Assembly: GCA_020850415.1 (NCBI GenBank)
Contig: JADZER010000010.1
Coordinates: 77,459-141,458, forward strand
DNA length: 64,000 nucleotides
Source of the DNA: Phycisphaerales bacterium
GTDB lineage: Bacteria > Planctomycetota > Phycisphaerae > Phycisphaerales > UBA1924
Direction: 5' to 3'
Part shown: positions 60,018 to 64,000 of the stretch, piece after piece
Layout of the letters: every line of letters starts with the position of its first letter
Position numbering within the stretch: the stretch's first letter is position 1
Translations under genes and position numbers: made by a program
Notes under the pieces: generated by a model
Seen by the model: the letters and a program-made list of their open reading frames with translations, nothing else
The model's database searches: none
Told to the model about the DNA's origin: nothing

Positions 60018-60521
60018 ATGACTCGGGCCCCCCGGCCGCGTCATCGGCCTCGAACGCGTCCCAACAGCGAGCGCGCCGAGTACACCCGCGACGAGGCCCT
60101 CATCGGCCTGGGGCACTGGGACCTCGACCGTCGCCCCGACTTCCGCGAGGGCGTGCTCCACATCCCTGACCGCAAGAGCGACGCGTTCTTCGTGACCCTG
60201 CACAAGACCGAGGACGCGTACTCCCCAACGACCATGTACGAGGACTACGCGATCAGCGACCAGCTCTTCCACTGGCAGTCCCAGAGCACCACCTCGGCCG
60301 ATTCGCCTACCGGCCAACGCTACACCCGCCACCGCGAGCAGGGCTACACGCCCATGCTCTTCGTCCGCGAACGCAAGGCCCTTCCCAGCGGTCTCGCCTC
60401 CCCCTACGCCTTTCTCGGCCCGGCGGATCATGTATCTCACAGCGGCAGCCGCCCGATCAGCATCGTGTGGCGATTGCGGACCCCAATGCCGACGCGCCTC
60501 GCGCGAGTCGCAGTTGGCTAG
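60018..60521 (+). pseudogene. Orphan C-terminal DUF3427-like fragment (normally the tail of a large helicase/nuclease protein)
   Basis: Residues ..REGVLHIPDRKSDAFFVTLHKTEDAYSPTTMYEDYAISDQLFHWQSQSTT..GQRY..LFVRERK..PYAFLGPA..H.G.RPISIVWRL..PMP match my recollection of the DUF3427 domain. No helicase domain lies upstream. The N-terminal 30 aa are Arg/Pro junk. Confidence 0.5.
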
Positions 60522-60598
60522 TCACCTCGGGTGGGGGGCTTCACTCATCGAGGCCGCCGAGGTCGAGCCATGGGACGACACCTGCCAATGCCCGCGGC

Positions 60599-60850
60599 GA
60601 TCATGCGGCGAACGCTCGGCGATCATGCCAGGCGCACTGGATGAACGAGGGCATCGCGCCGTACCTCGTCGCGCGGTGGCTCGGGCACAGCCTGACCGTG
60701 AGCGCCAGGCACTACACGCTGGCCATGCCCGACGAGGTGCTGTCGCGGGTGACGGGCCGAACGGTGACCCCACCCGCGGCGACAAAAGTGACGCAAAAAG
60801 TGACGCAGCACGCGTCCGCACCGGAGCGCACGGCGCACCGAATCGCCTGA
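60599..60850 (+). pseudogene. Tyrosine recombinase (phage-type integrase) C-terminal fragment
   Basis: Only the last ~60-80 aa are recognisable: ..ARRSCQAHWMNEGIAPYLVARWLGHSLTVSARHYT. (R, H and catalytic Y region). The remainder of a ~350-aa integrase is absent. Confidence 0.55.
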
Positions 60851-60892
60851 TCGAGCCTCTCCGACATCCCGCGCAACCCCCCCAAAAGCAAA

Positions 60893-60926
60893 GGCTTGCG
60901 CCCCGGTGCAACCCGGTGCGCAAGCC
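60893..60926 (-). terminator. Intrinsic terminator for a minus-strand transcript
   Basis: GGCTTGCGC (60893-60901) pairs with GCGCAAGCC (60918-60926). An inner CCGG/CCGG extension gives 13 bp with one mismatch. On the minus strand the stem is followed by TTTGCTTTTGG. It lies 8 nt downstream of the tRNA-like 3' end. Confidence 0.6.
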
Positions 60927-60934
60927 TCGAAGAA

Positions 60935-60961
60935 TGGAGCCGGGGGGATCGAACCCCCGGG
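60935..60961 (-). ncRNA. tRNA-like T-arm plus acceptor 3' strand (fragment, or the 3' end of an unidentified structured RNA)
   Basis: The minus strand reads CCC GGGGG TTCGATC CCCCC GGCTCCA, which is a canonical T-stem / T-loop / T-stem followed by an acceptor-like strand. I could not find a matching 5' acceptor strand or cloverleaf within the preceding 90 nt. Confidence 0.5.
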
Positions 60962-61111
60962 CGATTCCGCGTGTTGCCTGGATATCAAGGCCAAAACGCG
61001 TATGTCGCCCGAAGCGCGACGCAAAATGTGACGCACAGGTTTCCGCCTGTCGCACAACCTCTGGCATACCGACTTCAGGACCACCCCCATTTGGAGCGGG
61101 TAGGGAGACGA

Positions 61112-61138
61112 CGCGCCGCACGCGCCGCACGCTCCGCA
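61112..61138. repeat. Tandem 9-mer x3 (CGCGCCGCA CGCGCCGCA CGCTCCGCA)
   Basis: Read directly from the sequence in a non-coding stretch. Confidence 0.8.
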
Positions 61139-61298
61139 ATCAACCCGAGGCCCGCGCCTGCCGCCCCGTCCGGTCCTCCCGCCGCCGCGGCGTTGGCCTC
61201 GCTGCCGCCCCACGACGCCGCGTGCGGCGTTCCGGTCGAGCGGGCCGATACCGGGGCCAAAGCGCCCGCCCACGCGGCACGGGGCGACGACGCCCGCG

Positions 61299-61516
61299 GC
61301 CGCCAGTTGGCCACAACACCCTTCGGTGGTGGCCTTCTGGCGGGTACGGCGGACGGGGAGTGGGGGGGTTCCGGTAGCCGCCAGTTGGACACAATCTCTT
61401 TCGATTGTGGCCTTGTGGCGGTCACGGTGGTGGCGGCATGAGGGGGGTTTCCCCTGGTCGCCGGGTGGGCGCGATCTGTCCCGTCCAGGGGGCGGTCACG
61501 GTGGGGGCGGCGTGAG
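61299..61516. repeat. Two tandem ~78-nt units, each with a 44-nt imperfect hairpin, plus a third partial unit
   Basis: Hairpin A is 61300-61343 and hairpin B is 61378-61421. They share the outer stems CCGCCAG..CTGGCGG and GG(C/A)CAC..GTGGCC, but the apical stems differ while still pairing (CACC/GGTG versus AATC/GATT). The 14-nt GGCGGTCACGGTGG recurs at 61417 and 61491. Confidence 0.8.
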
Positions 61517-61653
61517 CCTGATCCGACCGGCGGACCCCAAGTACCTGACTTGGCTCCATCAATGACAACGGCAAGGTAGAGTGTCGGCGAATGTCCCGCC
61601 CCTCTCGGGGGCCAAACGGCCGCACCTAAAGGCCATCAGAAGCGCCGCGCACG

Positions 61654-64000
61654 ATGAAGCGAGAGCAGGCCATCTTCGGTCGATGGACGAGCGTCGTTTC
61701 CTGCGGGGTAGTAGCGGCTGGCGTGTGGGGTCTGGCGAGTGGGGCGGTTCATTCCTCGCTGGGCTTCGTCATCGACTACCTCGCGTCGGTCCGCGCTGAT
61801 GTGTTGTCAACCGCGGTGCTCGTGCTGGTCGTGGCCGCTTGCTGGCCGTTTGGGCGGCGGCGCTGGCTGGCATTCCTCGGACTTCGACACCTCGGAACCT
61901 ACCCACCTCTGTGGATCGCTGTCGCAGTTGCCTTGCTGATCATTGGAGTCTACGAGGGGATCGCCGGGCGATGGGAACCGGCGATTGCGGGGCCAGGCCT
62001 GATCTGGTCGCTGATCACGACGGCTCCCGCTTGGGTTTGGCTCGCAGCCGGTGTCGTCCTGGGGACGCGCCTCCTTCACAAGAGTTGGCCAGCAGCAAAC
62101 GCCCGAGCGCCAGACGGTGATGGTGGTGGTCTCTCGGCGCTGATCACTTGGTTACGTGATGATCACGAGATTTCCCAGCCTCACGAAGACCGGTTCGGTC
62201 ACGATGCTGTGGCCACTCGCATCGCCGAGCGTCTCAAAGCCCAGGGCGAAAGTCCGACCATGGCTGTCGTTGGACCTCTCGGTTCTGGCAAGTCCACGAT
62301 TCGCCAGCTTGTTGAGCATCACTTGGGTACGCAACGCTCGACCGTGATGGTCCATCTCAGTCTTTGGCCGTTTGATACTCCCGACGCCGCTGTCGCTGGG
62401 ATCATCCGGTCCGTCATCCGAGCGTTGGGGCAGCGAGTGAACGTTCTGGCCATTGCCGGGCTGTCCGAACGCTATGTGGAGGTCATTGAGCGTACCGGCG
62501 GACGCTGGGGTGTCCTAGCGAGGCTGATGCGTGGGGACTCCAGGCCCGACGTGATCCTCCGGTCTCTGGCGACCATTGCGACTGCGGCAGGTCTTAAACT
62601 CGTTCTCTGGATCGAGGACATGGAGCGATTCACCGGGGCTGACCGACTCGGCCCGGAAGATGCGGCCATCAGAGAGGCAGAACGACTCGGGCCGATTCTG
62701 TCGCTTCTCGTGCTGCTCGATCGGTGCGACTCGATCTCGGTTATCGTCGGCGACACATCGCTGCGCTCGCGGTTGGATGTCGGAAAGATAGCCCGATTCG
62801 TCGAGAGTCCTCCCCGTCCGGGTGCGAAGGAGATCTGGCGGCAGATCGAATCCCTCCGATCAGCGTGCCTTTCCGAAGACGTACTTGATCCGGCCAGTGA
62901 AGAGTGTCGCGCAGTACTCACTCCGCCCGAGAGCGACCTTCAATACGGTATTTGGTTGTGGAGTGTCCGGGACAGCGAACCGCGCATTCAAGAAGCGCTT
63001 CCATTGCTGCTAACCACACCACGATCGTTCAAGTGGGCACTTCGTATCACATGGGAGACCTGGGAGCGACTAGCCGGTGAAGTTGATATCGACAGCGTAC
63101 TGGTCGCGTCCGCTCTCAGGGTGTCTCGGCCGGAGCTGTTTGCGTTTATTGATGAACATGTGGATCTCATGCGAAGCGGCTTTCGTGATCCAGTCGCCAG
63201 TGTCGACGGTCAACGATCTGCGCATCCGGTGTTTGAGCAACTCCGTGCCTTGCTGGACAAGGAGAACACTGAGCGAATGCGAAATGCAGTCGCTACCGCG
63301 ATCGGCTTTGTGTTCCCTGCAGTATTCAGCCACTACGAGCGCGATCGTGATTACATGGAGCGCCCCCAAGGTCTAGGTGTAGCGCGCCATGCAGACTACT
63401 GGCAGCGATACCTGACGCTCCCGGTTATCGCGGAGGGAATCAGTGATCAATCGGCATTGAAGGCGATCGCTGCTTCGAAGACCGGCCAGAGTAGTGACCT
63501 GGTGGCAAGGCTCATGGATGCCGAACGCTCCGAACAAGTCGAGACGTTCGTCGGGCAGTTTGACGCAGAACACCTCTGCCGACTCCTGACGGAGCTGGTA
63601 GCCGTTCTCCAGGATCAATCTGCACGGGCGTGGGAAGACGGGCGACATGCACCCGGCATTGTGCCAGTATGGCGCATGATGCACCGACGCCAACCTCCCG
63701 TGGCTTTGCTGGGTGACACGCTTGTCCGAGTCATGAGTGCATTGGCAATGCGGCATTTGCCGCTGACGCAAGACATCTGGTACTACTTCGCGGAAGAACA
63801 GCATGGAAGTGTCTCCAGTCTACTTGATGACGTTCAGCGCGAACGGGTCCGAGTCGCCATCCGCGGGGGCATGGTGGGCACCTTCAAACAGAATGCTGGC
63901 GATCGCCTATTGCAGGCGATGCACCATGGCTCGCCATGGGTTGTCTGGTATCTCTGCATGGCGGTTGCGACCAATGAAGCCGGGGGGCCGCCATTTGATG
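61654..64000 (+). CDS. Membrane-anchored KAP-like P-loop NTPase (3' end outside window; absent from supplied ORF track)
   Basis: My own translation of the frame containing 61654. A stop (TAA) lies at 61627-61629, the ATG is at 61654, and there is no stop to position 64000. The N-terminal ~150 aa hold about 4 TM helices. Next comes DDHEISQPHEDRFGHDAVATRIAERL...VVGPLGSGKST (Walker A, 62272-62298) and Walker B-like LKLVLWIEDMERF. Local G+C is about 60% against about 68% elsewhere. Confidence 0.8.
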   Translation, partial: MKREQAIFGRWTSVVSCGVVAAGVWGLASGAVHSSLGFVIDYLASVRADVLSTAVLVLVVAACWPFGRRRWLAFLGLRHLGTYPPLWIAVAVALLIIGVYEGIAGRWEPAIAGPGLIWSLITTAPAWVWLAAGVVLGTRLLHKSWPAANARAPDGDGGGLSALITWLRDDHEISQPHEDRFGHDAVATRIAERLKAQGESPTMAVVGPLGSGKSTIRQLVEHHLGTQRSTVMVHLSLWPFDTPDAAVAGIIRSVIRALGQRVNVLAIAGLSERYVEVIERTGGRWGVLARLMRGDSRPDVILRSLATIATAAGLKLVLWIEDMERFTGADRLGPEDAAIREAERLGPILSLLVLLDRCDSISVIVGDTSLRSRLDVGKIARFVESPPRPGAKEIWRQIESLRSACLSEDVLDPASEECRAVLTPPESDLQYGIWLWSVRDSEPRIQEALPLLLTTPRSFKWALRITWETWERLAGEVDIDSVLVASALRVSRPELFAFIDEHVDLMRSGFRDPVASVDGQRSAHPVFEQLRALLDKENTERMRNAVATAIGFVFPAVFSHYERDRDYMERPQGLGVARHADYWQRYLTLPVIAEGISDQSALKAIAASKTGQSSDLVARLMDAERSEQVETFVGQFDAEHLCRLLTELVAVLQDQSARAWEDGRHAPGIVPVWRMMHRRQPPVALLGDTLVRVMSALAMRHLPLTQDIWYYFAEEQHGSVSSLLDDVQRERVRVAIRGGMVGTFKQNAGDRLLQAMHHGSPWVVWYLCMAVATNEAGGPPFD

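Follow-up and report, generated by a model that had tools for sequence, protein, structure and literature searches.

An ssrA 3′-end fragment at a likely seam between stacked integrative islands in a Phycisphaerales genome

Results

A tRNA-like 3′ end between an integrase relic and a low-GC flank

The 64-kb stretch of DNA analysed here (the window) lies on contig C10, which is 144 kb long, of a genome that was searched as 84 contigs totalling 4.43 Mb. Toward the right end of the window a complex-I-like operon and, next to it, a DUF1275 gene are followed by the C-terminal fragment of a DUF3427 protein (60018-60521, plus strand; Pfam DUF3427 profile positions 132-275 of 280), and this fragment abuts the 3′ relic of a tyrosine integrase gene on the same strand (60544-60850, stop codon at 60848-60850). 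Convergent with the relic, on the minus strand, are a terminator-type hairpin (60884-60926), a short copy of the 3′ end of ssrA, the tmRNA gene (60932-60959), and a conserved stretch of about 180 nt (60960-61137). We refer to the ssrA copy as the att core, to the conserved stretch on its right as the P arm, and to the side that carries the hairpin and the integrase relic as the P′ arm. Farther to the right is a gene for a KAP-family P-loop NTPase (61654-64000, plus strand; Pfam KAP_NTPase and AAA_16), which continues past the window and is followed on the contig by a ParB-N6/N4 methylase. GC content is 0.56-0.62 on the right, P-arm side of the junction as against 0.67-0.72 on the left, and it is thus the right side that has the composition and gene content of foreign DNA (low GC, the KAP NTPase and the ParB-methylase), the KAP gene being cargo at the distal end of an island.

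An earlier note on this DNA, made from the sequence alone, had described a tRNA-like 3′ end that lacks a cloverleaf, and this is indeed what the minus strand holds. Positions 60959-60935 read CGGGGGTTCGATCCCCCCGGCTCCA, with the T arm and the 3′ strand of the acceptor at 60935-60958, and the core as a whole takes in the T stem with its 6-nt T loop, the 3′ strand of the acceptor, the discriminator A and a further 3 nt. ARAGORN made 0 tRNA and 0 tmRNA calls across the whole 64-kb window and Rfam gave no match there at its gathering score; a permissive Rfam search of 60500-62000 returned as its sole relevant match a partial one of 13.6 bits, to the T arm and acceptor of the tmRNA model. The fragment is accordingly neither a canonical tRNA, for which ARAGORN found no complete cloverleaf with acceptor 5′ strand, D arm and anticodon arm, nor a tmRNA in one-piece or permuted form, for which neither ARAGORN nor Rfam found the tRNA-like domain, tag reading frame and pseudoknots.

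The genome encodes, according to ARAGORN, a single tmRNA gene, located at C56:15247-15597 and specifying the tag ANNSGYALAA; Rfam confirms it with 169 bits to RF00023, which served as a positive control. A second copy of the fragment attached to a complete tmRNA, as the earlier note had suggested looking for, thus exists. The core aligns with C56:15572-15600, a 28-nt block that is identical between fragment and intact gene apart from a 1-nt deletion, and we conclude that the fragment, judged by its sequence, is copied from the final ~28 nt of this genome's ssrA and lacks one base of the T loop. The intact ssrA begins GGGGCCG and ends CGGCTCCA; because the gene begins in this way, the U in the fragment falls at the G3:U70 position, as the earlier note had supposed. 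The same note had called the T arm textbook, and here it was one base too generous: the T loop has 6 nt (TTCGAT) in the window instead of the 7 nt (TTCGATT) seen in the intact gene and all the other copies that were examined, making the window core the only copy with a shortened loop. Beyond the gene the two sequences remain similar for a few bases, the window junction reading GGGGGTTCGAT-CCCCCCGGCTCCA-TTCTTC on the minus strand and the intact 3′ end GGGGGTTCGATTCCCCCCGGCTCCA-TTTTTC. The T-loop deletion could be a 1-nt assembly error.

A search of the genome with a 24-mer pattern allowing up to 2 mismatches found the window copy alone, because the other copies differ from it by an indel; BLAST with the end of ssrA recovered four more, so that the genome holds four ssrA 3′ fragments (in the window and on contigs C41, C67 and C79) and one intact gene. 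The block is exact over 28-31 nt in the C41, C79 and C67 copies. On C41 the core lies at the very end of the contig, which breaks exactly at the T stem. All four fragments are followed by the same spacer, an identical hairpin and about 400 nt of further common sequence that includes the 3′ end of an integrase gene.

The terminator follows the integrase lineage

Between the core and the hairpin is an 8-nt spacer, TTCTTCGA (60934-60927). The hairpin itself occupies 60926-60893 and has the form GGCTTGCGC-A-CCGG-GTTGCA-CCGG-G-GCGCAAGCC, with 9+4 bp and a 6-nt loop, and its tail, TTTGCTTTT, runs from 60892 to 60884. The 13-bp hairpin and tail that the earlier note placed 8 nt downstream of the tRNA-like end are therefore exactly where it put them. 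Folding and a terminator scan identify this element as a predicted intrinsic (Rho-independent) terminator, in that a GC-rich hairpin of 9+4 bp is directly followed by UUUGCUUUU.

The integrase relic keeps the last 77 residues in frame, 84% identical to residues 334-402 of the 402-aa integrase encoded on C41, including the LGH...HY region with the catalytic tyrosine; about 20 more codons, corresponding to residues 315-337, are present in another frame. The relic is put at the last ~77-88 codons, and DNA homology between the window and C41 stops at 60544. The C41 gene is complete, with an open frame of 402 aa that matches Pfam Phage_integrase and Phage_int_SAM_5, and the copies on C79 (with a Pfam integrase catalytic domain) and C67 are cut by the start and the end of their contigs, respectively. 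NCBIfam gave this integrase lineage only weak, below-cutoff matches to Xer-type models and otherwise matches to generic tyrosine-recombinase models. Integrase genes, or in the window the relic, thus lie beside the cores of the window, C41 and C79, as they do beside the intact ssrA of C56 and beside ssrA in the related genome G003 described below. Short C-terminal relics of the integrase are also found beside the core at three loci of related genomes (L006 of G002, L009 of G001 and L013 of G007), and those of L006 and L009 begin near residue 334-342, as in the window; this shared start suggests either a recurrent deletion endpoint or an inherited stub.

The hairpin found in the window is repeated without change after the cores on C41, C67 and C79, and beside a 96%-identical integrase in another metagenome-assembled genome (MAG). 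More generally, the identical hairpin accompanies integrases that are 84-96% identical to that of C41, and a diverged variant accompanies the group at 73-79%. Since the hairpin tracks the lineage of the integrase and not that of the host, the terminator appears to be island-borne, a part of the island's own P′ arm, rather than demonstrably native to ssrA.

One of the two readings offered in the earlier note was that the fragment and hairpin are the original 3′ end of a tRNA or tmRNA gene with its native terminator, displaced by an island that lies to the right. Applied to ssrA, this would mean that a single insertion moved the original gene end and its terminator, and that the left flank is the chromosome that originally lay downstream. 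Two observations lend this some weight: in G004, which is of the same genus, the identical hairpin stands after an intact ssrA and the 1.6-kb locus (L012) shows no detectable C41-type integrase, and the recurrence of short integrase relics beside the core (L006, L009, L013) means that relic and hairpin together could be an inherited flank that now acts as native downstream sequence. The association of hairpin variant with integrase rather than host argues against it, however, as do the presence in one genome of four hairpin copies, each with an integrase 3′ end, and the fact that the intact ssrA of this genome has a different terminator that comes with a different integrase. We consider a native terminator improbable. 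What survives of the earlier proposal is that the 3′ part of a tmRNA gene sits at the boundary of an island extending to the right, where the low-GC KAP gene is; the terminator is better assigned to an island, and the left flank starts with an integrase tail.

A complete island of this family in a related genome

The arrangement can be seen in full in G003, a complete, one-contig genome of the same genus. Its ssrA (3,754,255-3,754,605, minus strand) is followed directly by a C41-type integrase gene, with 78% nucleotide identity over 1.4 kb, and about 36 kb further on is a junction, consisting of P arm and core, that is 82% identical to window 60891-61137. The two ends of this island have in common the block C-GGGGGTTCGATTCCCCCCGGCTCCATTT. 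Gene and fragment therefore lie in the same orientation on one replicon in G003, with the 36-kb island between them. After the far-end junction G003 carries a full PLD-helicase-DUF3427 gene, whose longest ORF is 1169 aa (L019 6765-10274). The DUF3427 piece in the window represents the last 167 residues and is in the opposite orientation, relative to the junction, to the full gene of G003, an indication that a restriction-like gene has been rearranged or has decayed at the edge of an array.

A scan of public genomes with the C41 integrase yielded eight relatives, seven in MAGs labelled Phycisphaerales or Phycisphaeraceae and one in a MAG labelled Candidatus Eisenbacteria. Four of the eight are convergent with an intact tmRNA gene (L028, L031, L033 and L034) and two of the eight converge on a P-arm-core junction like that of the window. 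The Eisenbacteria-labelled MAG contains the closest public integrase (L027, JADJQY010000022.1; 96% identity), together with an identical hairpin and P arm; mis-binning, mislabelling or recent transfer are all possible explanations for the label. Among the relatives examined we did not find an empty site in which ssrA is joined to the left flank of the window, and the flanks are not syntenic: the operon of the window's left flank is absent from G003 at the DNA level, and tblastx of both window flanks against 12 related junction loci gave nothing useful.

Conservation of the P arm

The P arm and core, with an arm of ~180 nt, are kept on C67, in the same-genus genomes G003, G008, G009 and G002, and in G022, which belongs to another genus of the same family. 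We aligned the window with these six homologues, giving seven sequences with a mean column identity of 82%. The three hairpins that the earlier note had drawn upstream of the T stem all fall within the P arm and could be located there, at 61035-61050, 61004-61020 and 60968-61000. A further hairpin, CCGCTCC-AAATG-GGGGTGG (61081-61099, minus strand), is for the most part conserved as a helix (columns 31-37 paired with 43-49 in the RNAalifold consensus), and its changes are all one-sided. In permuted order, its strands look like those of the tmRNA acceptor stem, first the 3′ and then the 5′ strand, and CCCTACCCGCTCCAAAT within it resembles CCCCCCGGCTCCATTT of the core; it could be a second, degenerate core or a core-type site of the integrase. 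A short tandem motif, GCGGAGCGTGCGGCGCGTGCGGCGCGTC, marks the outer edge of the arm (61105-61140, minus strand) and is kept in the six homologous arms (columns 1-19). Between the P arm and the KAP gene, hairpin-bearing tandem units at 61192-61516 make up a dispersed repeat, which recurs at 91-94% identity on C76, C47, C35 and C74 and, at 79%, next to the P arm of C67; its appearance is that of a MITE- or REP-like element, not of a local structure.

The second reading in the earlier note was that the fragment is the 3′ end of a longer, tRNA-like-terminated non-coding RNA. Stated for this locus, the conserved ~180 nt upstream, the T arm, the acceptor strand and the terminator would be transcribed together into a structured small RNA whose 3′ end is tRNA-like, such as an island-borne mimic of the tRNA-like domain of tmRNA; if this were true, the RNA might engage SmpB, alanyl-tRNA synthetase or RNase P, and the island would carry a decoy or regulator of trans-translation in place of mere recombination debris. 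The 211-nt stretch does fold better than its shuffles (z = -3.5), with the terminator hairpin as the largest single helix, the upstream arm is conserved together with the core in seven loci and has a terminator downstream, and the hairpin at 61081-61099 does look like a permuted acceptor stem. The alignment nevertheless speaks against an RNA. The covariation term of RNAalifold was unfavourable (+1.5) and the helices of the earlier note were not recovered, seven sequences giving limited power; 81.5% of the cells in those helices held a standard pair as compared with 81.7% in column shuffles, and one pair showed a two-sided change where column shuffles predicted 1.0. At the ACAGG/CCTGT hairpin the 3′ strand is invariant and the 5′ strand varies without compensation. 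The most conserved blocks instead do not vary in sequence, a pattern expected of DNA to which proteins bind; the search for a sigma-70-like promoter came back negative, and ARAGORN made 0 calls in three homologues that have a normal 7-nt T loop (L005, L008 and L016). Because the upstream hairpins lack covariation, the structured-RNA reading is not supported, and we regard it as very unlikely. An origin of the P arm in the body of tmRNA was also considered and rejected, the local alignment score being 20 as against 18.2 +/- 2.6 for shuffles. Covariation is absent across the seven homologues, and upstream of the T stem nothing resembles the body of tmRNA; this part of the earlier proposal finds no support. 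We take the fragment to be a recombination site and leftover DNA, not a gene for an RNA.

Candidate arm-type sites on both sides of the core

The most notable conserved sequence of the P arm is CCTGTGCGTCACATTnTGCGTC. The motif TGCGTCAC-ATTT-TGCGTC (61018-61035, minus strand) is nearly invariant in all seven aligned arms, with one variable base. The same motif occurs on the same strand in the P′ arm, where two direct TGCGTCAC repeats (60788-60807, minus strand) lie inside the codons of the integrase tail that specify KVTQKVTQ. These repeats are at +151 and +163 from the core in the window; the motif is at +152 and +164 on C41 and at +164 on C67 and C79. The pattern TGCGTC[AC]C occurs 321 times in the 4.43 Mb of the genome, and nine of these occurrences are within 400 nt of the four fragment cores, when ~0.3 would be expected for the five cores searched, a set that includes the intact ssrA, which has 0. 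All nine are on one strand, at offsets of -77 (-53 on C79), about +151 and about +163. Given their enrichment and conservation, we suggest that the TGCGTCAC repeats are candidate arm-type integrase sites on both attP arms.

Other islands at ssrA in the same genome

The intact ssrA on C56 is followed by a downstream sequence and a terminator different from those of the four fragments, the terminator being supplied with a different integrase. Directly downstream of the gene are a tyrosine integrase, a T4 coupling protein and ParB, from which we conclude that ssrA is an active, busy insertion target for islands in this genome. The C56 and C41 integrases have no similarity detectable by BLASTP. 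With its unrelated integrase, its ParB and a coupling protein of the TraG/TraD type, the island at the intact gene (L002, 6248-11941) looks like an integrative conjugative or mobilisable element. On C79 (L018, 830-6784) an ssrA-fragment junction with a variant upstream arm, TGTGCGTCCCCCTGTGCGTCC, lies beside Cas3 and Csd1/Cas8c genes of type I-C CRISPR-Cas, and the right end of the contig resembles a CRISPR repeat; CRISPR-Cas may be island cargo there.

The intact ssrA (C56) and the window fragment (C10) are on separate contigs in compatible orientations, and a search for end overlaps among C10, C56, C41, C67 and C79 gave no links; the window junction and the C56 ssrA may belong to one array. 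The small contigs with the extra copies (C41, C67 and C79) could come from co-binned strains. That the junction in the window is the intact attP of an excised circle, or of an element from a co-binned strain, misjoined to the chromosome by the assembler, is the least credible of the explanations we weighed: its order of P arm, core and P′ arm is formally that of an attP, and the break of C41 at the T stem indicates that the repeat disturbs assembly, but all that the P′ side has of the integrase is a stub of ~77-88 codons, and this stub abuts the DUF3427 fragment and, on a contig of 144 kb, a long conserved operon, an arrangement that ill suits a live circular element.

Discussion

We have presented evidence that the tRNA-like sequence at 60932-60959 very probably belongs to an attachment-site junction formed by mobile islands whose target is the 3′ end of ssrA. 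Such insertion would proceed by recombination, catalysed by a tyrosine integrase, between the attP of an island and ssrA within a block of ~28-31 bp that begins on the 5′ side of the T stem and ends a few bases beyond the gene. The island would bring its own copy of the block together with a terminator, in a P′ arm that lies beside the integrase gene, so that ssrA stays whole, and the earlier copy of the block would be displaced to the far end of the island, behind the P arm. The P arm (60960-61137) and core (60932-60959) of the window would then mark where an island extending to the right has its far end, and the sequence at 60544-60926, comprising the terminator and integrase stub, would be the remnant of an older member of the family, or else of a flank that descends from such a member. 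This left member would have been deleted down to the terminator and the last ~77-88 codons of the integrase, ~400 bp in all. Because the left side begins with an integrase tail, the site is a seam between two stacked islands of the same family, with P arm, core and P′ arm in order, and not a plain edge of the chromosome.

The two strands of the T stem are the obvious candidates for inverted core sites and the T loop for the overlap between them, so that the crossover would probably take place in or near the T loop. The 1-nt deletion in the T loop of the window copy, assuming that it is not an assembly error, would be expected to hinder recombination at this site and thereby fix the boundary of the right-hand island.

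A tRNA-like end that lacks a cloverleaf is explained in this way as an ordinary scar of integration, a known kind of feature that poses no challenge to current understanding. What the junction does mark is the limit of an island acquired by horizontal transfer, whose genes include a likely defence gene, the KAP NTPase. The genome holds several ssrA-targeting islands of one integrase family, and next to one of the fragment junctions lies a type I-C CRISPR-Cas module. With the att core, both conserved arms and the candidate arm-site motif it should also be possible to delimit islands of the C41-type integrase family in related MAGs.

The junction bears comparison with the attachment sites of lambda-type phages. 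In an attP of the lambda type the core has a P arm on one side and a P′ arm on the other, and these bear arm-type sites for the integrase. The direct TGCGTCAC repeats described here similarly flank the core, at fixed distances from it, and one set falls within the 3′ end of the integrase gene; enrichment and conservation are the grounds on which we propose this likeness.

The islands themselves appear to belong to the class recognised by Islander and TIGER, in which tyrosine-integrase islands occupy tRNA and tmRNA genes (Hudson, Lau & Williams 2015, PMC4383910, citing Williams 2002, 2003). The signature of such an island is a tDNA together with a fragment of tDNA, an integrase lying beside them, the attP fragment restores the interrupted gene, the gene and the fragment displaced from it delimit the island, and tandem arrays, formed by the insertion of further islands, are known (PMC4383910). 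As in those islands, we find an intact target and displaced 3′ fragments, an integrase beside the target, and an island copy that restores the gene. The block of identity begins on the T stem's 5′ side, as in the 'T-stem region' class of sites in Islander, and, as in the tandem arrays of PMC4383910, each member has its own fragment and integrase. The present case differs from the Islander and TIGER islands in that the assembly is fragmented, which leaves the order of the array unset, and in that the left member has been reduced to only ~400 bp.

Stacking of islands at ssrA has been described in Dehalococcoides (McMurdie et al. 2011, PMC3146451). The Dehalococcoides islands use the serine recombinase DsiB and a 20-bp repeat, whereas those described here have a tyrosine integrase, a block of 28-31 bp and a terminator of their own. 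The two cases are nevertheless alike in that several islands are stacked behind a single-copy ssrA, that insertion is in the region of the T loop, and that conserved sequence lies beside the repeats; as in Dehalococcoides (PMC3146451), some members are decayed, and CRISPR modules, which are cargo there, may be cargo here as well.
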